This document shows positions 5,430 through 20,777 of a DNA stretch of 64,000 nucleotides, in pieces. Each line of letters starts with the position of its first letter. The stretch's first letter is position 1. The stretch comes from Squalus acanthias. Lineage: Eukaryota. Below the pieces are notes generated by a model. The model was not told where the DNA came from, ran no database searches, and saw only the letters and a list, made by a program, of their open reading frames with translations. The stretch is from assembly GCA_030390025.1 (NCBI GenBank), contig CM059432.1:57290001-57354000 (forward strand), written 5' to 3'. The translations under genes and the position numbers were made by a program.

Positions 5430-7063
5430 TGTAAGGGGTGACCTGCGGCTCTGTGCTTAGCCTGGGTGCTAGTGCGGGGTTAGGCCTTGTTGCCTGCTCT
5501 GGTCTCCAGCCAGCCTGGTAATACTAGACACCTGTGAGTGGTTCGACCCACTCGCCCTTACGGTTCTGACACTGGACTTAGGTGCGAGAGCAATAATGCA
5601 GAGAAGACTCAGGTAGACCCGGTTGAATATGCGAAATGGAAAATCTTTATTGCATATTATTCAAGATTACGAGATACATGTCATAAGCACAGATTAACGA
5701 CAGTACAATCTTACACACAGTTATGAAACTAATTTTAGGGAAACGAGGAGCGCACGACACATCGTAAAAGGGGACACACATTATAATTATCCTTAAAACT
5801 TAAACCCTCCCCTATCAATACCTGTCCTAATCTAGATTTGTAGGATCGAGACTCATGCTCACCACTCGGGACAATTCGGAGGATTCTAAATCGATGTTCG
5901 GATGCTTTCGCCACCGCACCTGACCACTCACGTGTTGGTCAAGGGTCTCTGCGCCTCACTTGTTTACTCGTTTCTGCTCCGGCTAGTAGGCTGGACCGCC
6001 TGCGGCCATGAAGATCTGTGTTGGTTTTCAGAGTTCGGACACCCCTCAAAGAAGAGTCTTCCTGTGCCCTCACCGGTTCGATAGAACTCGAAGAAGGGTC
6101 TTCCTAGGCCAGTTGTGGAGTAGCCGATAAAATTCGAAGAAGTGTTTATTCGACTTACAGGTGCGGTCGGGGCTTACTGACCGTGGCGATACGTATTGTC
6201 GTCTTCTTCTCTTCTCATCTCATCTCATCTCATCTCATCTCCTCTCGGGCCTTCGGTTCCAACACCGTTTACCGACTTCTCGGGATGGTGCGCCCGCTTC
6301 CAGGCCTCACAGCCCAGTTCTCCACAGATCTTTGCGGCAAGCCACGAGGTTGATCCTAGCGGATCAGAGTCCAGAGCCGTCAGGCAAGAGAATAAAAGTT
6401 CAGCAGCCTTCCAGCGAGTCAAAGCAGCAAGAGAAAGATGGACGGTTGTACCTTACAGTTATAGTGCTGTAATTCCTCTTTTCCCGCCCAATCTTAATGT
6501 CTATCTTTTGTCAGGGTTTTGGCGCTCAAACTTCTTGTATGGGGTGATCTCAGTCTTTAATGGGTTTCGGTGACACTTGTAACTGTCTGAGTACCCGTTA
6601 ATATTTCTCCCATTGTGGAACCGGCTAGTAGTCTCCCTGGAGGGGTTTTGGGGCTTCCAAATGCTTGCTGTGAGTACCCGCAAACGACTCTCTCATCGTA
6701 GAGTCGTGGGGATTTTGCATATTAATGTCTTTGGATGGGTCCTTGATCGCTCAGTACAATAGCCCTTGTTTGCACCTGGGAGACCGATTTCAGTATTCAT
6801 GTTTAAAGTGTAAACCCATCGTGTCTTGTCATTATCTCATCATGTTGGATCTTTTCGATCTTGCACAAATGTTTATTGGAACGCCATCTTGTCTGCCTAC
6901 TGAAAGTCTAGAACTTTCTGCCACGAGGTGTGGCGGCCATTTTACAGGCTGTTTGTGTCCATTTTGAAACCTGACAGCATTCTGCTGAAATAAAGCTGTT
7001 TATACGAAACTTTATGTCTCCTTCTTATTTTTATAAAATCGCGATAATTTTGCGAATTCTACA
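5430..7063 (-). repeat. 3' LTR (1634 bp)
   Basis: Direct repeat of 18513-20146 at offset 13083. Minus-strand AATAAA at 5646-5651. Internal (CTCAT)n tract near 6213-6242. Confidence 0.97.
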
Positions 7064-7075
7064 GTCCCTCCTGTT
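7064..7075 (-). promoter_or_regulatory. Polypurine tract
   Basis: Minus strand AACAGGAGGGAC directly abuts the TG of the 3' LTR. Confidence 0.6.
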
Positions 7076-7412: not shown

Positions 7413-8305
7413 GGGGTAAAAATTAGGTCGCGCCCCATTTGGGGCGCAAATATCGTCTGGACGCAAATATTAGCGCCTGCCGCTAATTATCGGCACTGAC
7501 TGGAAACTTCACTTTTACCGCCCCGGGAGGTGAGTGGAGCGCTAAATCAGGCGCTGCACACCTGTCTTAAGGCGCAAAGGCCAAGGAGTGAGGCGCTAAC
7601 TCAGAGCGCTGGCGAAGCTCATGTAATGTCAGTCAGCAATGGAACACACACACAATGGCACGGGCCAGTTCTTAAAGGGGATGGTTAATCTTGCTTTCCA
7701 TCCACATCCTGTTCATTGCAGCCTTGAATCTCGGCCTGGAGAGACTTGCACATCAAATGTGCTGGAAAGAACAATGGAGAGTACCAGGCAAAGAGCTCAG
7801 AGTGCAGCTCCCACAGTCTCTGCTAAATCGATACAAGGAATGGCAAATCAAAATGAACCTGCAAAGTGCTGCTCAGTACCCAAAACTCCTTCACACAACA
7901 TTGAATCTCTCCAGAAGTCTCTCCCTCTCTCTCTCAGAATGCGTAGTTCAAAAATGCCACCAACAATAAAAGACAGGAAGAGGCCCCCTTTAAATAGCGC
8001 CCCCCCCAGCCCCACAGCGATTGATAGCGTTCCAGTCTTCTGGTCGTTGGATGCGCCAGGCGGTAAGGCAGGGGGCGCCACTCAATTTCCGCTCCGGGGC
8101 GCCACAAGGGCGTTGCACCATGGAATGACGTCATAATCTGCGCACGCAGGTGGTCGCAGCGGTAAGTTTTAGCGCCGCCGCACAATCTCTAGTTAAGTTC
8201 CCGAGCGGCGCAACCATCGCTGCGCCCGGGCGTTAGCGGCTTTGCGCCCCATTAGCGCCCTCTTAAGGCGCTAACGGGAGGCGCAACCAACTGAATTTTT
8301 ACCCC
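7413..8305. mobile_element. PIF/Harbinger-type MITE inside the provirus 3' region
   Basis: Terminal inverted repeats (TIRs) GGGGTAAAAATT and AATTTTTACCCC; 3-bp TSD GTA (7410-7412, 8306-8308). Confidence 0.85.
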
Positions 8306-8407: not shown

Positions 8408-10554
8408 TTACGCGGTGCTTTCATCGTGCACGCGCACGTAACGTTCTCGCCACTCTCCCGTGTTTTCGTTCTTGGTGAGGCGTTTGCCTCTCTTACAGTG
8501 TATGACCAATAAGTATATCACAATAAACACTTGGCATACAACTAAAATGTGGGAGGCTATTCTAATCCAGGAAGGCACTTCAATGTTGGTGAACAGATCC
8601 CACCACGGTGGAATTACTATGTCTAGAATTTCCGTCCCTATCTCGACAGTCTTTTGTTCTAGGGTGTAAAAATGTTTTTGCGATACCGCGACGGCTTTCA
8701 AAAGCTTGGTGAGGTGTTCAGGGAGAGGGGGAATGAGGTATCCGAAATGCGCGACGAATCGCTGTAAGTCGGTGAAGTTCTCTTTTACTGTAAGATGAAC
8801 AGTGGATGGTTCAGGGATCGGGACAATTCGCTGTTGTGCCACTTGAACTTCCGCCCTGGGTTTAAAACAGAAACTGCTGTCACTCACCGGACACCGGCTA
8901 CGGTTTCCATGCTGGTAGTGTTGCGCTGCAGTGGTAACACAATATGTTCCACCCCCGATGTATGCTACCTGCGGAGGCACATGATCTTGTGCCATTGCCT
9001 CCATGGTGCAATTCATGGGCTTGGCGCCAGCCGTTCTGAACCCGCACTGTGGTGTTAAAAAGGCATTCAAGTGCTGGGGACACAGTATTATGTGTGCTCC
9101 CCGGCCACGACAACCAGAGAGATCTGTACCTGTCATCGTTTGCTCCCAGCGGATGACGTAAGGTGGAACCACTGCATAGCGAATGTGGGCTCCCCCCTGA
9201 ATGACACCAATGTTCTCTACCCGATACACCGGGGCGGGCTTTGCTGTGTCGCCCAAAACCGGCATACGTAATACTATACCCATGATGGTGTGGTTTGATC
9301 GTCCGCAGTCCACGGGGACTGGGTATGCTTCTGAAGCTAGCCTGAGCTGGCACGGGCTTAATGCGTTCTGAAAAGGGTGGAGCGCCTGCAGGTGTTTGTT
9401 ACTTATCCAGGACGGGACCAAACCTTGTTTTAAATCCTCCAAATTACTGCGGTCCTCGCCCAGTAACCACGCCCCGTAAAGCACGCACACCTCGTTCTGC
9501 GCAGTCTGATCGGACGCATTCCGATCTTCCCTAATCAGGGCATTTACCGTACGCGCATGTTTCTCTAGTTCAGCTATTATTTCTTTTAAATGGAGAGTCA
9601 TGGCCTGGTCCTCGTGTAACCCAGACCCAACCACCTTATTTTCATCTGTGAGAATATTCTTTAATTGTGTTTTTAAGCCATTAATCTGGGTCTGCAGCTC
9701 CACGCTGTCTAGAGCGTTGACCACAGATGTACCTGTATTGAAAGCAGTGAACATGTCGTTCACAACACCCCTTCTTTGCCTCCCTACCTGACCCAAAACT
9801 TCATGTGGTGCGGTGTACAAACTTGTTTTATCAATTTCCGCGAAATCGAACTCATAAAATTGCCTAAACATCTTGGTCAACAGGACCTGATATAACTGTT
9901 CCGTCTCTTTGGGGCACCACTCCGGCAACCGCACCTCGGTGAGGTTTAAAATCACCGAGGCCACCGCGTAATGTACCCCCTGAAATAGTATCTGGTCTGT
10001 AGGGACCAATACCAAACCATTCCCGGGTCCCTTACTGGTTTTTGGGCACCCTTCTTCCTTAGCTAGAACCACCGGAATTGTGGGCGGGGCCTTGCGTGGG
10101 CGCGTAATGAGTTCAGTGGCATTTACCGGGATCGAAGAGTATGGAGCTCCGCACCCCCTGGTGCTCGCATCCCACCTCATCCCCTGCCCGTTATCCTGCC
10201 ATTGATTGATGAAAAATATGGAGATGCCTTTGGGGCAAACTTGCTTTGACCCCCACATACATACATAAATTCCCTCATCCGGTTCCCACCATTTGTCCCA
10301 ACAGACTCTCACTTGTCCGTTTGTCCCCGTAATTGTCCGATGGGTATTATTACCCAGTCGCTCGCACTCAACCGAAGAGTTCCTCATGTTTTTGCTCAGC
10401 TTTCGCAGCCACCACCATCGGCTCAATGGGACATTCCCATTACAAGTCAAACAAATCCGTTTGCCGACGGTGACGCTGACTCTGGGTGCGATGATCCTCA
10501 CTTTGGGGCACATTAAAGAAGTCTCTTTGTAGGCAAAACCCGATGTACTGGAAT
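8408..10554 (-). CDS. env: Envelope glycoprotein, C-terminal 714 aa: Ig-like domain plus F-like class I fusion protein (gene split by CR1)
   Basis: Ig motifs VSVTVG..CLTC, W, DEGIYVC; furin site RQRR (9770-9781); fusion-peptide/heptad region GVVNDMF...LQTQINGLKTQLKNIL; long Cys-rich segment; second heptad; PPWWDLF; TM ILVVCQVFIVIYLLVIHC; basic cytoplasmic tail. Confidence 0.85.
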
Positions 10555-10557
10555 ACT

Positions 10558-10830
10558 CAGCGTCGACAGTGGGGGAGGAGGAGCCTTTCTTTCTTTCTCT
10601 CTCCCACAGAGCGGTCGGCAGCGGGGAAGGAGGGGCGGACCTGGTTGGAGCGGCAGAGGCCTGAGGTGAGTCATTAAAGGGAGGCCCGAGGCTCAGGTAG
10701 GCCTCAGACCAGCGTCGACAGCGGGGGAGGAGGAGCCTTTCTTTCTTTCTCTCTCCCACAGAGCGGTCGGCAGCGGGGAAGGAGGGGCGGACCTGGTTGG
10801 AGCGGCAGAGGCCTGAGGTGAGTCATTAAA
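10558..10830 (+). repeat. 152-bp tandem monomers (about 1.8 copies) at the CR1 5' end
   Basis: CAGCGTCGACAG...GGTGAGTCATTAAA starts at 10558 and again at 10710, near-identical. Confidence 0.9.
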
Positions 10831-11115
10831 CTCACCTACGTGGCCTTTTTCCCCAGCGGGGAAAGAGCTTCGCGGGCTTTTTCAAAGGCAGGGGGCGGGG
10901 CCAATTCATTGGTACCCGTATATAGGTGGAGCGGTTGCTAAACCCGAGACACTAAACTAGTAGTGACTCCCACCCTCCCACCTCCTCTAACCATTAGGGG
11001 TAGAGGGAATTTAAAAGGTAGGTTCGATTTTATATTTTGTTTTCAGGGACTTAACTCCTGGACCTAAGATAAATAAGTTTAAATTTTAGTAATAAAGTAA
11101 CATAAGGGTTAAGTC

Positions 11116-12060
11116 ATGACAGGAAGTCTCGGACCCGTTTCATGCTCCTCCTGTGCCATGTGGGAAACCAGGGACACTTCCAGTGTCCCTGACAACTACG
11201 TGTGCGGGAAGTGTGTCCAGCTGCAGCTCCTGACAGCCCGCATGGCGGTGCTGGAGCTGCGGGTGGACTCACTCTGGAGCATGCACGATGCCGAGAACTC
11301 GGTGAATCGCTCATTTAGTGAGTTGTCCACACCGCAGGTAAAGGCTAGGACAGACAGTGAATGGGTGACCAAGAAGCAGGGCAATATCAGGAAGGTAGTG
11401 CAGGAGTCCCCTGTGGTCATCTCCCTCCAAAACAGGTATGCCGCTTTGGATACTGTTGGGGGAGATGGCCTACCAGGGGAAGGCACTAGCAGCCAGGTTC
11501 ATGGCACCATGGCTGGCTCTGCTGCACAGCAGGGCGGGAAAAAGAGTGGTAGGGCTATAGTGATAGGGGACTCAATTGTAAGGGGAATAGACAGGAGTTT
11601 CTGTGGCCGCAACCGAGATTCCAGGATGGTATGTTGCCTCCCTGGTGCAAGGGTCAAGGATGTCTCTGAGCGGCTGCAGAACATTCTGAAGAGGGAGGGT
11701 GAACAGCCAGCTGTCGTGGTGCATGTAGGTACCAACGATATAGGTAAAAAGCGGGAAGAGGTCCTACAAGCAGAATTTAGGGAGCTAGGAGCTAAATTAA
11801 AAAGTAGGACCTCTAAGGTAGTAATCTCTGGATTGCTACCAGGGCCACGTGCTAATCAGAATAGAGAGAACAGGATAGTGAGATTGAATACGTGGCTTGA
11901 GCAGTGGTGCAGGAGGGAGGGATTCAAATTCCTGAGGCATTGGAATCAGTTCTGGGGGAAGTGGGACCTGTACAAAAGGGACGGTCTGCACTTGGGCAGG
12001 ACTGGAACCGATGTCCTCGGGGTAATATTTGCTAAAGCAGTTCGGGAGGATTTAAACTAA
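11116..12060 (+). CDS. CR1 ORF1p (zinc finger, leucine zipper, SGNH/GDSL esterase-like domain)
   Basis: CSSC...CGKC; heptad leucines; IVIGDSIVR, CLPGA, HVGTND and DGLHL esterase blocks. Confidence 0.92.
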   Translation: MTGSLGPVSCSSCAMWETRDTSSVPDNYVCGKCVQLQLLTARMAVLELRVDSLWSMHDAENSVNRSFSELSTPQVKARTDSEWVTKKQGNIRKVVQESPVVISLQNRYAALDTVGGDGLPGEGTSSQVHGTMAGSAAQQGGKKSGRAIVIGDSIVRGIDRSFCGRNRDSRMVCCLPGARVKDVSERLQNILKREGEQPAVVVHVGTNDIGKKREEVLQAEFRELGAKLKSRTSKVVISGLLPGPRANQNRENRIVRLNTWLEQWCRREGFKFLRHWNQFWGKWDLYKRDGLHLGRTGTDVLGVIFAKAVREDLN

Positions 12061-12107
12061 TATGGCAGGGGAATGGGAACCTATGTAGCGAAACAGGGGG
12101 AAGTAAT

Positions 12108-15044
12108 ATGCAGTCAGAAACAAATGTTAGAAGGGTGAGAAACAATAGGGGAAGGCCGAGTAAACAAAGGCAAGAAACACAAAGGGCCATACTAAATCAT
12201 AAGTCTAAAAGGACAAAGGATGTTAATAAAACAAGCCTAAAGGCTCTGTGTCTTAATGTAAGGAGTATCCGTAATAAGGTGGATGAATTGACTGTGCAAA
12301 TAGATGTTAACGGATACGATGTGATTGGGATTACAGAGACGTGGCTCCAGAACAATCAAGGCTGGGAACTGAACATCCAGGGGTATTCAACATTCAGAAA
12401 GGATAGAATAAAAGGAAAAGGGGGTGGGGTAGCATTGCTGGTTAAAGAGGAGATTAATGCAATAGCTAGGAAGGACATCAGCTTGGAGGATGTGGAATCA
12501 ATATGGGTTGAGCTGCAGAACACCAAAGGGCAGAAAACGTTAGTGGGAGTTGTGTACAGACCTCCAAACAGCAGTAGTGAGGTGGGGGAGGGTATGAAAC
12601 AGGAAATCAGAGGTGCGTGCAAAAAAGGCACGGCAGTTATCATGGGTGACTTTAATATGCATATAGATTGGGCTACTCAAACTGGAAGCAATACGGTGGA
12701 GGAGGATTTCCTGGAGTGTTTAAGGGATGGTTTCCTAAACCAATATGTTGAGGAACCAACTCGAGGGGAGGCCATCCTGGACTGGGTGTTGTGTAATGAA
12801 GAGGGACTAATCAGCAATCTTGTGGTACGAGGCCCCCTGGGGAAGAGTGACCATAGTATGGTGGAGTTCTACATTAGGATGGAGAAGGAAACAGTTAAGT
12901 CAGAGACCATGGTCCAGAACTTAAATAAGGGCAACTTTGAGGGTATGAGGCGTGAATTGGCGAGGTTAAATTGGCAAGCGATATTTAAGGGGCTATCAGT
13001 GGAAGGGCAATGGCAGACATTTAGAGATCGCATGGATGAACTACAACAATTGTACATCCCGGTCTGGCATAAAAATAAAAAAGGGAAGGTGGCTCAACCA
13101 TGGCTAACAAGGGAAATCAGGGATAGTATTAAAACCAAGGAAGTTGCATACAAATTGGCCAGAAGTAGCAGCAAACCCGGGGACTGGGAGAACTTCAAAA
13201 CTCAGCAGAGGAGGACGAAGGGTTTGATTAGGGCAGGGAAAATAAAATATGAAAGGAAGCTTGCAGAGAACATTAAAATGGACTGCAAAAGCTTCTATAA
13301 ATATGTAAAAAGAAAGAGGTTAGTAAAAACAAACGTAGGTCCCCTGCAGTCGGAAACAGGGGAAGTCGTAATGGGGAACAAGGAAATGGCAGATCAATTG
13401 AACAAGTACTTTGGTTCGGTGTTTACTGTGGAGGACACACACAACCTGCCGGAAATAAAAGGGGTCAGAGGATCTGGTAAGAGGGAGGAGCTGAGGGAAA
13501 TCCTTATTAGTCGGGAAAAGGTATTGGGGAAATTGATGGGACTGAAGGCTGAAAAATCCCCGGGGCCTGATGGTCTGCATCCCAGAGTACTTAAGGAGGT
13601 GGCCTTGGAAATAGTGGATGCATTGACGATCATTTTCCAACATTCCTTAGACTCTGGATCAGTTCCGATGGAGTGGAGGGTGGCCAATGTAACCCCTCTT
13701 TTTAAAAAAGGAGGGAGGGAGAAAGCAGGGAATTATAGACCGGTCAGCCTGACATCGGTCGTGGGTAAAATGATGGAAGCAATTATTAAAGATGTCATAA
13801 CAGACCATTTGGAAAGTGGTGACATGATAGGTCCAAGTCAGCATGGATTTGTGAAAGGGAAATCATGCTTGACAAATCTTCTGGAATTTTTTGAGGATGT
13901 TTCCAATAGGGTGGACAGGGGGGAACCAGTAGATGTGGTGTATTTGGACTTTCAGAAGGCCTTCGACAAGGTCCCACACAAGAGATTGGTGAGCAAAGTT
14001 AAAGCACATGGGATTGGGGGTAATGTGTTGACGTGGATTGAGAACTGGTTGGCACACAGGAAACAAAGAGTAGGAGTAAATGGGTACTTTTCAGAATGGC
14101 AGGCAGTGACCAGCGGGGTACCGCAGGGTTCGGTGCTGGGACCCCAGCTGTTTACATTATATATTAATGATTTGGACGAAGGGATTAAATGTAATATCTC
14201 CAAATTTGCGGATGACACTAAATTGGGAGGCAGTGTGAACAATGAGGAGGATGCTAGGAGGCTACAGAGTGACTTGGACAGGTTGGGTGAATGGGCAAAT
14301 GTATGGCAGATGAAGTACAATGTGGATAAATGTGAGGTTATCCACTTTGGTGGTAAAAATAGAGAGGCGGACTATTACCTGAATGGTGGCAGATTAGGGA
14401 AAGGGGACGTGCAACGAGACCTGGGCGTCATGGTACATCAGTCACTGAAGGTGGGAATGCAAGTGCAGCAGGCAGTCAAGAAAGCAAACGGAATGATGGC
14501 CTTCATAGCAAGGGGATTTGAGTACAGGAGTAGGGAGGTGATGATACAGTTGTACAGGGCTTTGGTGAGGCCACACCTGGAGTATTGTGCGCAGTTTTGG
14601 TCTCCTAACTTAAGGAAGGACATTCTTGCTATTGAGGGAGTGCAGCGAAGGTTCACTAGATTGATTCCTGGGATGGCCGGACTGACATATCAAGAAAGAT
14701 TGGGTCAACTGAACTTGTATCCTCTGGAGTTCAGAAGAATGAGGGGGGATCTTATAGAGACATTTAAAATCCTGACTGGTTTAGACAAATTAGATGCGGG
14801 CAGAATGTTCCCAATGGTAGGGAAAACTAGAACCAGGGGTCACAGTCTAAGGATTAAGGGGAAGCCATTTAGGACTGAGCTGAGGAGGAACTTCTTCACC
14901 CAGAGAGTGGTGAATCTATGGAATTCTCTTCCACAGAAGGTTGTTGAGGCCAGTTCGCTAAATATATTCAAAAGGGAGTTAGATATAACACTCACAACTA
15001 AGGGGATCAAGGGGTATGGCGAGAAAGCAGGAATGGGGTACTGA
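12108..15044 (+). CDS. CR1 ORF2p (APE endonuclease plus reverse transcriptase), intact, 978 aa
   Basis: LNVRS, ITETW, YRPP, GDFN, SDH; RT motifs YLDFQKAFD, GVPQGSVLGP, FADD. No stops; frame is open from 12051. Confidence 0.97.
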   Translation: MQSETNVRRVRNNRGRPSKQRQETQRAILNHKSKRTKDVNKTSLKALCLNVRSIRNKVDELTVQIDVNGYDVIGITETWLQNNQGWELNIQGYSTFRKDRIKGKGGGVALLVKEEINAIARKDISLEDVESIWVELQNTKGQKTLVGVVYRPPNSSSEVGEGMKQEIRGACKKGTAVIMGDFNMHIDWATQTGSNTVEEDFLECLRDGFLNQYVEEPTRGEAILDWVLCNEEGLISNLVVRGPLGKSDHSMVEFYIRMEKETVKSETMVQNLNKGNFEGMRRELARLNWQAIFKGLSVEGQWQTFRDRMDELQQLYIPVWHKNKKGKVAQPWLTREIRDSIKTKEVAYKLARSSSKPGDWENFKTQQRRTKGLIRAGKIKYERKLAENIKMDCKSFYKYVKRKRLVKTNVGPLQSETGEVVMGNKEMADQLNKYFGSVFTVEDTHNLPEIKGVRGSGKREELREILISREKVLGKLMGLKAEKSPGPDGLHPRVLKEVALEIVDALTIIFQHSLDSGSVPMEWRVANVTPLFKKGGREKAGNYRPVSLTSVVGKMMEAIIKDVITDHLESGDMIGPSQHGFVKGKSCLTNLLEFFEDVSNRVDRGEPVDVVYLDFQKAFDKVPHKRLVSKVKAHGIGGNVLTWIENWLAHRKQRVGVNGYFSEWQAVTSGVPQGSVLGPQLFTLYINDLDEGIKCNISKFADDTKLGGSVNNEEDARRLQSDLDRLGEWANVWQMKYNVDKCEVIHFGGKNREADYYLNGGRLGKGDVQRDLGVMVHQSLKVGMQVQQAVKKANGMMAFIARGFEYRSREVMIQLYRALVRPHLEYCAQFWSPNLRKDILAIEGVQRRFTRLIPGMAGLTYQERLGQLNLYPLEFRRMRGDLIETFKILTGLDKLDAGRMFPMVGKTRTRGHSLRIKGKPFRTELRRNFFTQRVVNLWNSLPQKVVEASSLNIFKRELDITLTTKGIKGYGEKAGMGY

Positions 15045-15143
15045 GGTAGCATGTTCAGCCATGAACGCATTGAATGGCGGTGCAGGCTCGAAGGACCGAA
15101 TGGTCTACTCCTGTACCTATTTTCTATGTTTCTATGTTTCTAT

Positions 15144-15340
15144 GAATTCGTTCCCAGCCATCCTGGCCACCTTCCCTTGTGGAAATAGGTGGTGGTCTCC
15201 TCAGCCTCTCGCCTTCCGGTCCCATCCACCGCGATGGGGGCCGTGTCCCCGGAGCATCCAAACACCACGACATCCTTGGTGCGGCCTCGATAGGCCAATC
15301 CACATCCAAATGCCGCGAGCACTACCAGAATCCGTTCCAT
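15144..15340 (-). CDS. env: Envelope glycoprotein N-terminus with signal peptide
   Basis: MERILVVLAAFGCGLA after a strong Kozak ATG (aggATGg). Joins the C-terminal part in frame as ..WLGTNS|STSGF.. once the CR1 and one GAAT copy are removed. An upstream in-frame ATG exists at 15451. Confidence 0.8.
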
Positions 15341-15642
15341 CCTTCCTTGGTTCCTGTGATCAGATAGAATGAGGTAGCCAGCCTCCCAAGAGTCTCTGGC
15401 TTTTGTGAAGGGTGAGCGGGTCCCCTGACCTCGCCTCACGTAAGAAGACATGTGCGCTGGATAGACTTTAACTATTCCTATTTCTAACTCCCATCATTTT
15501 ACCATTTTCTGTTAAAAAATTAAACTACAAACTTAACCTGATTTAAAACTATAAACTTAAACTTATAAACTTATAAACTCATCCTAAACTTATCACTTAT
15601 CTTAATAACTGTAGAGTGCCGCCCGTTCCCAGGGCGGCCTAC

Positions 15643-16685
15643 TCAAATTCTGCGGTTGCTGCCGCAGGCTTCTCCCAACGGTGGGAGGGCATTGACCCCT
15701 CCCTTTGATCTGCCGCAGCCTGTTGCTGCTGCGCTGTGACTGGGCTCTCCCTGGGCTGCCTTAGCCCTGGGCCTACGCTTAGGGACATACGGGGGACTTA
15801 CCCACATCTTTCTGGGCTGGGGTTTCCGACTTGACCTACGGGGAACTACCGGGGGCAGGAACTCCAGGACTGACGGACCGGGTTCCGAGACTTCCACCGT
15901 GGCGACCTGTGGTCCCACCACAGTCGCTGGCTCCGCCTCCCCTAACTCCGCCTCCCTGAACTCGGGATCTGCAGCTTGTGGCACCACCCTACTTGGCCCA
16001 GTAGGCGGCCCTTCACTCGCAGTCCCTACCTCCCTCGAGGGCAAGACGTTCAAGGCGGGCGGCTCGGGCTCTGAGGCTTCCATCGCCACGCCCTGTGGTC
16101 CCACCACAGCGCTGGCTCCGCCTCCCCTAGCTCCGCCCCCCTGCGTTCGGGACCTGCAGCTTCGGCCTCCACCCTGTGTGGATCTCTATCTGCAGCCCCT
16201 GTCTCCCCTATACCTGAATCGGGGGCGACCCTTTCGTCCTCCGATTCCAGCTCCTCTTCGCTTGTGTCACTATCTTGGTCGAGCTTCTCGAACTCTTCCT
16301 CATCTGGCTCCCAACCCAAATAAAGGATCCTACATTTTGCTAGGATGTCCTCTCCCCTGATGCAGGCTGCTTTGCCTGCCTGTGTGCCCTGTGGCCCTAC
16401 CCGGGGCTGCGAGTCCCCACTCGCAGGTTTGGCCCCTGTGGTTGGCCCTTGTGCACCCGGCTTATGCAGTTTGCACTGATTAAAATCCTCATACTCCCTG
16501 CTTCTGGCTACCCTGTAGGCTGCCTTTATCTCTCTAAGCTGCCCTTCTAGCACGTCTATTTTTCCCATTAAACGGGCGTTCTCCTCCCGCAAGGCCTGCT
16601 CTTTTAACCTGGCCTCCTTACAGGAGACCCCCTCCTGTGCGTTTCTTTTAAAAGGACACAGGTAGGCAGGCTGCGTGGGCTCTAG
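15643..16685 (-). pseudogene. Non-pol ORF in the gag readthrough frame (Gag-like coiled coil, acidic stretch, Pro/Glu repeats); one 1-nt frameshift; about 347 aa if repaired
   Basis: In frame with gag after TGA-CTAG. ORFs 16050-16592 and 15643-16107 join when the base missing at 16109/16110 (present in the sister repeat) is restored. Confidence 0.7.
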
Positions 16686-18508
16686 TCATTGGGTACTGTT
16701 GGACGGGGCTGCGGCATCTGCGGGGCCGGTAGCGACTGCCACCCTTCCTTGCGAAATCATGAGGGTGCGCATGGCTCCCAACATTGATTCGATCGCATCG
16801 GGATGGATAGTTGCACCAGCTCCCCTATCAGAAACAGGCGCCTAGGCTCGGACTGCGGGATTTTTATCCCTGGACTCCTTCCAAGGATTCCTGCAGTTCT
16901 TGCGCCAGTGCCCTGTCTTTCCGCATCCGAAACAAGCATTACTGGCCTGTGGGACGCGATTTCCCTCCTGATGCCACTCCTTTTGAGCCGGGGCTGTGGG
17001 CCGCGCCTCATGCACCTTTCCCTTAAGGGGACGTGCTCCCGTACTCCTGGTATTACGGTACCCTACCGTGAGTCGATTTAGGACCGACTCCTCTGTAGTG
17101 GCGGGGTTAGTGGGATCAAACCACGCTTTGGCCTGCTCCCTGACGGCTGGCAAACTGTTGGCTACTACACACCTGAGCCAATGAGTTAAACCGACGCCGT
17201 TCAAATAGGCGCGCTCTGGCGCACCTGGGCAGCTACGCTGGTATACTGGCCACAGCCTGTCGGCGAAAACCTTCGGGGGTTCTCCCTCCATCTGCACTGT
17301 TTGTCCCAATCTAACGAACGGACCTTCATCGTCCGCTCCCAACACTTCCAGGACCTCGTCCCTCAATTCCCCATAAGTGTTATTTCCCCTCTTGCTCTCG
17401 TCTGAGAGACACTGAAGGATCGAGCTGTCTAATGAGAACAACAGCATTTTTGCTTTTCCCCCATCGTCGCAGCCGTTAATGGCTGCGGTTTGTTCTACCT
17501 CCCTGAAATGTATGGAAGGGTCGTCTGACTCGGACAGCTTCCGTACGTGACTGATCATAGCCCTCAGCTGGTGTGAGCTGTGAGGCAACACAAGCTGGTT
17601 GAGGAGATTCCCCGCTTCCCCATCGTCTTTGTTCGGGCCCCTTTTGATACCCGTAACCGGACACAACGGTCCCGGCTTCACTTCTACCTCAGGGGGCTGT
17701 ACTACCTCGGGGACCTCTTCCTCTACTTCTACCACTTCCTTCCTTACCCAGGTTGCCGAATAGCTGGGTGGCGCGGAGGGCACAGTGGCAAATACCTCCT
17801 CTGCCTTGTTCGGTGGGGATTTCTGAAATTCCCCACCCACCAGCGGCTGGTGTGCTGACGGGCTGATAAGGCACACCATGCCGTGCGCTTTATTCAGGGC
17901 CTCTTTAAGGTTCCCTATCTCTCTTTGGCAGACGCTGTGATCGGCCCCCTCATGTTTATCCTCGAGGGCCATCTTATATGCCGCCCTAACCCCCGTTAAG
18001 CTCTCTTCCTGGGCTTTTATTTGGGCAGCTAGGCGGGCACATCGTTCCTTTATTCTGCCCTCATTTAACTTTGCCTCAGTGACCTGGCACTCGAGGTAAT
18101 CTATTTTCGCCTCATGGTGGTTGGCGACTAACTGGCGTTCTTGATGCAACGCATTTAAAGACGCGATGAGCTGCTGCCCCCCCGCGACCTTCTCGTCCAT
18201 TTCCACCTCTAAACCCTTGATCTGAGCTGCCTGCGCTAAGATGACCTGGTCCGAAAACTGGACTTGTCTTTTATAGCACATCAGCCAGACCGCTTTCTCT
18301 ACTGTTCTTTTATGTTCCTTGCTACCTGTCCACCTCACGGCTGCCTCTAGTGGACGCTTATCCACCAGCAGGTCACTTATCCATTTCTTAGTGAAATTCA
18401 CTTTTCCAAACACATATCTGCTATTCTCTCTTCCATAACATTTCGCCCATTCATACCAGGGTCTAACACATTATTTTCTCGCTGCCAGTGTCCCTTCGTG
18501 GTCGCCAT
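16686..18508 (-). pseudogene. gag: Gag (coiled coil, capsid-like region, CCHC zinc knuckle); about 607 aa if repaired
   Basis: CFGCGKTGHWRKNC knuckle. The ATG at 18508 opens MATTKGHWQRENNV...MCLEK, one base out of frame with ORF 16842-18413 near 18402-18405. TAG at 16842-16844 is followed by 51 open codons to TGA at 16686-16688. Confidence 0.82.
18490..18507 (-). promoter_or_regulatory. Primer-binding site, tRNA-Arg(TCG)
   Basis: TGGCGACCACGAAGGGAC, 5 nt inside the 5' LTR; complementary to the vertebrate tRNA-Arg(TCG) 3' end ...GTCCCTTCGTGGTCG-CCA (recalled sequence). Confidence 0.85.
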
Positions 18509-18512
18509 TATC

Positions 18513-20146
18513 TGTAAGGGGTGACCTGCGGCTCTGTGCTTAGCCTGGGTGCTAGTGCGGGGTTAGGCCTTGTTGCCTGCTCTGGTCTCCAGCCAGCCTG
18601 GTAATACTAGACACCTGTGAGTGGTTCGACCCACTCGCCCTTACGGTTCTGACACTGGACTTAGGTGCGAGAGCAATAATGCAGAGAAGACTCAGGTAGA
18701 CCCGGTTGAATATGCGAAATGGAAAATCTTTATTGCATATTATTCAAGATTACGAGATACATGTCATAAGCACAGATTAACGACAGTACAATCTTACACA
18801 CAGTTATGAAACTAATTTTAGGGAAACGAGGAGCGCACGACACATCGTAAAAGGGGACACACATTATAATTATCCTTAAAACTTAAACCCTCCCCTATCA
18901 ATACCTGTCCTAATCTAGATTTGTAGGATCGAGACTCATGCTCACCACTCGGGACAATTCGGAGGATTCTAAATCGATGTTCGGATGCTTTCGCCACCGC
19001 ACCTGACCACTCACGTGTTGGTCAAGGGTCTCTGCGCCTCACTTGTTTACTCGTTTCTGCTCCGGCTAGTAGGCTGGACCGCCTGCGGCCATGAAGATCT
19101 GTGTTGGTTTTCAGAGTTCGGACACCCCTCAAAGAAGAGTCTTCCTGTGCCCTCACCGGTTCGATAGAACTCGAAGAAGGGTCTTCCTAGGCCAGTTGTG
19201 GAGTAGCCGATAAAATTCGAAGAAGTGTTTATTCGACTTACAGGTGCGGTCGGGGCTTACTGACCGTGGCGATACGTATTGTCGTCTTCTTCTCTTCTCA
19301 TCTCATCTCATCTCATCTCATCTCCTCTCGGGCCTTCGGTTCCAACACCGTTTACCGACTTCTCGGGATGGTGCGCCCGCTTCCAGGCCTCACAGCCCAG
19401 TTCTCCACAGATCTTCGCGGCAAGCCACGAGGTTGATCCTAGCGGATCAGAGTCCAGAGCCGTCAGGCAAGAGAATAAAAGTTCAGCAGCCTTCCAGCGA
19501 GTCAAAGCAGCAAGAGAAAGATGGACGGTTGTACCTTACAGTTATAGTGCTGTAATTCCTCTTTTCCCGCCCAATCTTAATGTCTATCTTTTGTCAGGGT
19601 TTTGGCGCTCAAACTTCTTGTATGGGGTGATCTCAGTCTTTAATGGGTTTCGGTGACACTTGTAACTGTCTGAGTACCCGTTAATATTTCTCCCATTGTG
19701 GAACCGGCTAGTAGTCTCCCTGGAGGGGTTTTGGGGCTTCCAAATGCTTGCTGTGAGTACCCGCAAACGACTCTCTCATCGTAGAGTCGTGGGGATTTTG
19801 CATATTAATGTCTTTGGATGGGTCCTTGATCGCTCAGTACAATAGCCCTTGTTTGCACCTGGGAGACCGATTTCAGTATTCATGTTTAAAGTGTAAACCC
19901 ATCGTGTCTTGTCATTATCTCATCATGTTGGATCTTTTCGATCTTGCACAAATGTTTATTGGAACGCCATCTTGTCTGCCTACTGAAAGTCTAGAACTTT
20001 CTGCCACGAGGCGTGGCGGCCATTTTACAGGCTGTTTGTGTCCGTTTTGAAACCTGACAGCATTCTGCTGAAATAAAGCTGTTTATACGAAACTTTATGT
20101 CTCCTTCTTATTTTTATAAAATCGCGATAATTTTGCGAATTCTACA
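18513..20146 (-). repeat. 5' LTR (1634 bp)
   Basis: Copy of 5430-7063, adjacent to the PBS. Confidence 0.97.
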
Positions 20147-20777
20147 GAGGGTTTGAGTACAGGAACAAGGATGTCTTGCTGCAGTTGTACAGGGCCTTGG
20201 TGAGACCACATCTTGAGTATTGTGTGCAGTTTTGGTCGCCTTATCTGAGGAAGGAGGTTCTTGCCATGGAAGGAGTTCAGCGAAGATTCACCAGACTGAT
20301 ACCTGGGATGGCAGGAATGACGTATGAGGAGAGATTGGGTCGATTGGGCTTATACTCGCTGGAGTTTAGAAAAATGAGAGGGCATCTCATTGAAACTTAT
20401 AAAATTCAGACAGGACTGGACAGACTAGATGCAGGAAGGATGTTCCCGATGGTCGGGGAGTCCAGAACCAGGGGTCACAGTCTAAGGATAAGGGGTAAGC
20501 CATTTAGGACAGAAATGAGGAGGAATTTCTTCACCCAGAGAATGGTGAACCTGTGGAATTCTCTACCACAGAAGGCAGTAGAGGCCAATTCATTAAATAT
20601 ATTCAAGAAGGAGGTGGATATATTTCTTAAGGCTAAAGGGATCAAGGGATATGGAGAGAAAGCAGGGACAGGGTTCTGAATTTGGATGATCAGCCATGAT
20701 CGCATTGAATGGCAGAGCAGGCTAGAGGGGCCGAATGGCCTACTCCTGCTCTATCTTCTATGTTTCTATGTTTCTAT
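20147..20777 (+). mobile_element. CR1 ORF2 3' part and tail (continuation of 3541-5429)
   Basis: GFEYRNKDVLLQLYRALVRPHLEYCVQFWSP; (TTTCTATG)n tail. Confidence 0.95.

Follow-up and report, generated by a model that had tools for sequence, protein, structure and literature searches.

Defective retroelements sometimes spread almost as successfully as the helpers they depend on. The reason is an open question, and mouse IAP 1-delta-1 is the main example that we found. The locus examined here, in a 64,000-nucleotide stretch of Squalus acanthias DNA (contig CM059432.1; below, the window), raises this question in a particular form. An earlier note, made from the letters alone, had described a gag frame that ends in CAA TGA CTA G and stays open beyond it, leading not into protease but into an apparent diverged copy of the Gag coiled coil. 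What is this extension, where did it come from, and what keeps it open?

RESULTS

A broken copy of an abundant retrovirus-like element

The minus strand of the window carries a broken copy of a retrovirus-like element that exists in some thousand copies. We refer to the family of this element as family A and to other families or forms in the same genome as B, C, and D. The features in the window are as follows.

18513..20147, minus strand: 5' LTR, 1635 nt, TG...CA, 99.8% identical to the 3' LTR (3 mismatches)
18490..18508, minus strand: primer-binding-site-like stretch, overlapping the gag ATG (18508)
16689..18508, minus strand: gag, with coiled coil, capsid, and CCHC knuckle (16934-16893); broken in the window copy
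17868..18077, minus strand: last part of the coiled coil of Gag; the cassette is homologous to it by sequence comparison
16682..16688, minus strand: predicted TGA-CTAG gag-pol readthrough junction, common to pol-bearing copies
16653..16685, minus strand: first 11 codons of Pol, the end of which (YLCP, in 27/30 copies) is a predicted protease cleavage site
16482..16652, minus strand: Gag-derived coil cassette, 57 codons, a single unit here (usually two), standing in for about 3.6 kb of PR-RT-RNase H-IN
15643..16481, minus strand: C-terminal (post-integrase) tail of Pol; the identical region ends Pol in pol-bearing copies
15144..15530 (upper bound approximate), minus strand: 5' part of env, severed by the LINE
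10561..15143, plus strand: LINE (endonuclease and RT), an insertion in env
8408..10560, minus strand: 3' part of env, with an RQRR site, by predicted features similar to F-type fusion proteins
7413..8305, no strand assigned: insert whose inverted termini read GGGGTAAAAA, separating env from the 3' LTR
5430..7064, minus strand: 3' LTR, 3/1635 bases different within the LTR pair

The element is flanked by a 4-bp target duplication, CCTC. The stretch at 18490-18508, which we take to be the primer-binding site, also codes for the Gag N terminus because the gag ATG overlaps it, and a skate Gag homolog (P0001) has the identical start, MATTKGHWQ. Named Gag homologs were found in skate, catshark, horn shark, and whale shark, together with one from Xenopus, a range that by itself points to a cartilaginous fish as the likely host. 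In uninterrupted copies position 15144 is joined to 10560 inside a single env ORF of 826 to 848 codons. The Env sequence gave ESM features of 0.92 for Baculo_F and 0.91 for Fusion_gly, no Pfam match, and a single-sequence fold with a pLDDT of 34.5. As judged from these sequences, the pol-less element of family A is an env-bearing, retrovirus-like element of vertebrates.

Several further features of these copies were observed. The LINE, presumably a CR1 element, is apparently full length; it has an ORF2 that is open over 1002 codons and, at its 5' end, tandem repeats (10558-10830). The element that hosts it has 99.8% identical LTRs and itself sits within another LINE copy. Upstream of the F-like part of env (about 10150-10560), a C...W...DEGIYVC pattern resembles an immunoglobulin V-set domain. 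The 893-nt insert with GGGGTAAAAA termini occupies the identical post-env site in several copies (L039, L041, L043, and L049) in both orientations, sometimes with larger internal inserts, and is absent from most other copies reaching the site; it may be a site-specific DNA transposon of a Harbinger-like kind. Nested related elements occur in opposite orientation in L047 and L050 and in the same orientation in L038.

The window copy itself is dead and cannot make the readthrough product. A frameshift near 18415 cuts gag off from its ATG at 18508, and env is split by the LINE. The CAA TGA CTA G junction described earlier is present (16691-16682, minus strand), but the gag frame fails to reach the TGA in the window because of an in-frame stop at 16844-16842, 51 codons ahead of it, where 29/29 other nearest copies are open. 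Beyond the TGA the frame continues for 211 codons only, ending at 16050. The acidic tract, repeats, and PRRSSRKPQP tail that had been noticed downstream do exist, but the repeats and basic tail are out of frame in the window because of a frameshift near 16111, a point at which the window differs from 27/29 other copies.

The extension consists mostly of Pol remnants

Twenty copies were fetched from near the top of the 150 Gag matches listed. After the same TGA junction, 12/20 of these Gag-picked copies continue into protease and 8/20 into the cassette. The pol-bearing copies encode PR, RT, tether, RNase H, and integrase (Pfam RT_RNaseH, then RNase_H), and relative to their Pol only 16652-16482 (about 57 codons) is new. 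This segment replaces about 3.6 kb of PR-RT-RH-IN, and the earlier proposal that the pol enzymes had been replaced in frame thus holds. Pol is the source of the readthrough site and the 11-residue leader, and also of the 279-codon acidic/basic tail, in which an acidic tract (16310-16233) and an imperfect repeat are accompanied by a basic RRS motif (15840-15802). The leader, LEPTQPAYLCPFKRN, lies after the TGA as had been reported, but it is nothing new, being the first 11 codons of Pol, and the readthrough context and tail lose their claim to novelty for the same reason, since both are parts of Pol present in pol-bearing copies. The insert is Gag derived, but the proposal of a "Gag-derived accessory extension" is not supported for the extension as a whole, as about 290 of its about 347 codons are Pol leftovers.

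Exact junction patterns in the genome numbered at least 1040 of the cassette type and 1453 of the pol type, the latter representing a helper family in the same genome; reversed controls gave 0. The cassette is duplicated in frame in 26/30 copies. A gag tree was made from 56/60 pattern-picked copies, the other 4 being too short. Here 13 label changes are required to account for the two forms, of which starred branches force at least 8, and shuffled labels require 19 on average; gag is thus mixed between pol-less and pol-bearing copies. This mixing points to repeated recombination between co-packaged RNAs, and so to co-packaging of the pol-less RNA with helper RNA.

Two variants of the coil repeat were also seen. 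Most two-unit copies (L051-L080) add a 2-codon insertion, giving a total of 25 rather than 23 residues, and one may speculate that it restores the coiled-coil phase. In L035, a cassette-type copy, about 62 nt of integrase sequence (oriented 2068-2129) lie within the coil repeat, likely through a template switch to helper RNA.

A search for homologs of the downstream ORF returned 1 protein only, which covers the integrase end and the tail without the coil, so that no annotated ortholog of the cassette was found. None of the listed runs carrying the sequence is on record as RNA; contigs of 4/9 of these runs cover the cassette and 1 bridges the TGA, but as these are not RNA records they are uninformative on expression. 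The 69-nt duplication is visible in the contigs of three listed runs.

The coil cassette has its closest relatives outside family A

The ungapped match between 16616-16488 and Gag from 18077, with 16/43 identical residues, was confirmed. Its local score was 72, that of the next best ungapped register 9. The similarity also withstood shuffling that allowed for coiled-coil bias, as 72 was reached by 0/20000 plain shuffles, 0/20000 heptad-phase shuffles (either side), and 3/20000 heptad-block permutations. Against a profile of Gag coils from other species the cassette scored 37.3 bits, and 0/5000 heptad shuffles were as high (maximum, 24.5). DNA identity between the cassette and its own Gag is 65/129, and a DNA source for the cassette, sought in three pol-bearing family A copies, gave scores at shuffle level only.

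The insert had been taken for a diverged copy of the coil of the element's own Gag. Such a duplication is rejected, since a clade of the cassette with family A Gag was excluded by the AU test (p=0.00037).

A search of the genome with diverged Gag proteins led to family B, whose Gag is 39-53% identical to the window Gag, depending on the segment. Family B carries the same cassette (87% DNA identity; 215 exact matches) in a longer form that consists of the coil, an HGPC motif, GMVCL, and the first capsid helix, and that to all appearances is a collapsed mini-Gag. The long cassette is identical at 44/74 positions to the Gag of the pol-bearing family C and at 29/73 to the window Gag, and the cassette of family A at 21/43 to family C Gag versus 16/43 to its own Gag, with tree support for the cassette-family C grouping of only 50/81. 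We conclude from these comparisons that the coil is Gag derived and comes from outside family A. The family A cassette has lost the HGPC and capsid-helix part.

A separate observation concerns the junction itself. In 9/30 family A cassette copies (L053, L054, L058, L061, L065, L070, L071, L073, and L080) a KQDRN junction occurs as in family B, which suggests further in-frame exchange between families.

The junction and the downstream frame are conserved

Among the 30 copies nearest to the window, TGA is found in 30/30 and CTAG in 28/30; besides the window copy, 15/29 have an uninterrupted frame between the TGA and the stop at 15645-15643, and in another 3 the open frame extends for 361-362 codons. 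The 30 pattern-picked cassette copies have TGA in 29, CTAG in 27, and CTRG in 30, and pol-type copies picked in the same way are likewise TGA in 29/30 and CTAG in 27/30. The ORF is open for 349-397 codons in 27/30 cassette copies, so that both the frame and the CTAG context (27/30) are conserved as the earlier note had anticipated, and for at least 514 codons in 23/30 pol copies. Stop alleles are depleted (5/490 seen, 15.9 expected, P=0.0013), and each of the 5 indel events that were called within the cassette has a length divisible by 3. The indel census of the tail was uninformative, as the aligner split compensating pairs.

In codon models that ignore recombination, with a null based on a coarse kappa grid, coil omega was 0.56 (n=30, p=0.006) or 0.60-0.62 (n=68, p<0.001), close to that of Gag (0.46-0.53); the shifted frames of the coil gave 1.1-1.2 (+1) and 2.0-2.1 (+2). 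The coil dN/dS of below 1 looked for is thus observed in family A, at about 0.6; it is weaker with CpG codons masked (0.70, p=0.16, n=30; 0.66, p=0.01, n=68) and neutral in family B. Tail omega was 0.48-0.53 in the first 70 codons and 1.06-1.17 in the remainder (about 1 in the middle and last thirds). Within the RRSxRxPQP motif, the residues shared across families are kept at 95-100% in 65 pol-less family A copies, and neighboring residues at 37-77%. This conservation of tail and motif could have been imported from helpers by recombination.

These data bear on whether the family simply descends from a few highly expressed masters with chance in-frame junctions, being too young to have decayed. 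Its copies are young (window LTRs 99.8% identical) and many parts have an omega of about 1, as such a neutral founder effect would predict. However, the frame is preserved at all of the many independent junctions and length variants of three pol-less forms, stop alleles are rarer than expected, and the cassettes of A and B, at 13% DNA divergence, have dN < dS. We regard a neutral origin as highly improbable.

The leader also bears on how the downstream frame is reached. Its 11 codons vary mostly synonymously, the shared changes being 4 synonymous and 0 nonsynonymous in pol copies and 5 and 2 in all cassette copies. UGA-CUAG is a leaky context that has been tested in vertebrate cells (PMC4132726). 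Readthrough of a few percent would be expected, given this stop context and given that in helpers the conserved leader is accessible in frame by no other route. A hairpin predicted after the stop is not shared with the pol copies (z -2.2 versus -0.5). Foamy-virus Pol is expressed from spliced RNA, and by analogy the downstream ORF might be translated from a spliced RNA or an internal ATG; an in-frame ATG is indeed present at codon 24, ahead of the DTG motif, in 30/30 pol copies. The mostly synonymous variation of the 11 codons upstream of any ATG and the retention of CTAG argue against this, as does the position of the first ATG of cassette copies, deep in the coil (codon 40 or 63), and this route is the least probable of those considered.

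The pol-less forms all share the layout but not all have the coil

The copies of B and D that were compared are the nearest neighbors of one query. TGA is kept in 29/30 copies of B and 29/30 of D, and both are fused in frame to the Pol tail. Form D (235 exact matches) is coil-less and has stubs of protease, RNase H, and integrase that run in frame into a Pol tail, with CTAG in 29/30, 10/30 open for >300 codons, and no widely shared frameshift after the stop. Since form D keeps the same layout, the coil is not the common factor of the pol-less forms; that factor appears to be readthrough into an open frame ending in the Pol tail. The tails of A, B, C, and D have an RRSxRxPxP..W..P.Y motif in common, but the pattern stands in the stop-codon frame in only 17/30 B and 11/30 D copies. 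Omega was 1.5 (p=0.055) for the family B cassette, 0.98 for the Pol remnants of form D, and about 0.71 for the gag of B and D. Cross-family dN/dS of the A and B cassettes was 0.53 (NG86, 30/30 pairs) or 0.66 (YN00, 19/30).

This raises the possibility that the open frame alone matters, that is, that selection favors the passage of ribosomes, e.g., to avoid decay of early-stop RNA, and that coil and tail serve as filler. In the B cassette, the D remnants, and most of the tail, omega is at or above about 1, yet the junctions are in frame, and readthrough in MoMLV is reported to prevent NMD (PMC4917968). Filler would not be expected to give the omega of <1 and the frame-specific pattern of the family A coil, the cross-family dN/dS of 0.53-0.66, or the conserved motif residues, and we consider this explanation unlikely, if still a serious one.

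The opposite possibility, along the lines of the earlier note, is that the coil is the working part, pairing with the coil of helper or own Gag and thereby recruiting helper Gag-Pol or hindering helper particles. In its favor, the cassette corresponds to the final part of a Gag coil and has passed between two or more Gag families; it has also undergone in-frame duplication in those 26/30 copies, and it is constrained in the youngest and largest family. Form D has nevertheless spread without a coil, the family A cassette has lost HGPC and the capsid helix, that of B is unconstrained, and the product already has a full Gag coil. A leading role for the coil is therefore quite unlikely in our judgment.

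DISCUSSION

Our results are best explained, with reasonable though far from complete confidence, as follows. The window holds a broken copy of a pol-less, env-bearing element in which a Gag piece from another family replaces the enzymes; intact copies likely read through TGA-CTAG, and the open frame likely aids their copying by helpers. Intact pol-less RNAs would yield Gag plus a few percent of a Gag-leader-coil-tail protein via readthrough, and this extension would probably favor its own RNA during the recruitment of helper Gag-Pol. Less certainly, the advantage would act in cis, as is reported for the IAP 1-delta-1 fusion. The main target of selection would be the translated frame together with the RRSxRxPQP motif of the tail, and the coil, an added oligomerization helix under modest constraint, would be secondary. 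Helper protease in mixed particles might free coil and tail at YLC/P, cleavage at YLCP being predicted from a similar motif ahead of capsid (17669-17655).

A bolder and more doubtful proposal, which we offer tentatively, is that pol-less parasites of this lineage have repeatedly converted the readthrough slot into a "helper-capture" module that can be swapped. Such a module, consisting of a foreign Gag coil and the basic tail of Pol and made at Gag-Pol stoichiometry, would travel from one virus family to another by recombination, and selection would favor its ability to draw helper machinery to its own RNA. Three pol-less forms, all with a readthrough frame to the Pol tail, occur in one genome, and comparing them offers a natural way to test whether such success is due to translation that acts in cis or to one particular part of the protein. 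The family also adds a retroviral UGA-CUAG junction in >2000 copies.

Comparison with known systems

Two identities considered for this element were rejected. We take Fv1 as the type of a host-coopted Gag restriction factor, and the at least 1040 dispersed copies here represent no single fixed host locus. ERV4 is described as lacking a zinc knuckle (PMC4299795), and family A Gag has one. Sharks are not mentioned in the available parts of PMC9040795, PMC12440569, PMC9447858, and bioRxiv 2023.10.26.564294; the family is undescribed in the literature searched, and Repbase and Dfam, which lay outside this search, may catalogue it.

As in retroviruses of the gamma and epsilon types and those of fish, gag and pol are in one frame, with a stop codon that follows the Gag knuckle and precedes the DTG motif of protease (PMC13517186). 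The retroviral gag-pol stop contexts given in the accessible parts of PMC13517186 and PMC4132726 are UAG or UGAAGA, UGACGA, and UGAAGU, and UGA-CUAG is not among them. Unlike in those retroviruses, the stop site here is retained after loss of the enzymes. The coiled-coil Gag, the tether and second RNase H, and the furin-type site are shared with lokiretroviruses (PMC7947760), with tether and second RNase H identified by Pfam in the helper and found in other retroviruses as well. Lokiretroviruses also have an F-like Env, which the present Env may resemble, to judge from its language-model features. Lokiretroviruses were reported in 0/6 cartilaginous fish genomes (PMC7947760). The nearest named RTs, in a comparison made without Loki references, are frog and coelacanth "NYNRIN-like" proteins (50-52%). 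Zebrafish BHIKHARI elements are pol-less, Gag-only relatives, and unlike the present element they are described as having neither env nor any extension (bioRxiv 10.1101/2024.03.25.586437).

The closest parallel is mouse IAP 1-delta-1, a very successful, helper-mobilized element with an in-frame gag-pol fusion that is reported to be cis-acting (PMC6466679, PMC7411935). Both are non-autonomous, have enzyme domains deleted, carry an in-frame ORF from gag to a pol remnant, and have a helper family in the genome. In contrast to IAP 1-delta-1, Gag is whole here, and readthrough is predicted to gate the fusion; env has been retained, no enzyme remains, and the gap is filled by a foreign Gag piece that has moved between families. 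The family A element thus belongs to a known kind, that of helper-dependent ERVs in which a Pol remnant is fused in frame; what appears to be new is its env-bearing form, with a predicted readthrough gate and a cassette moved between families.
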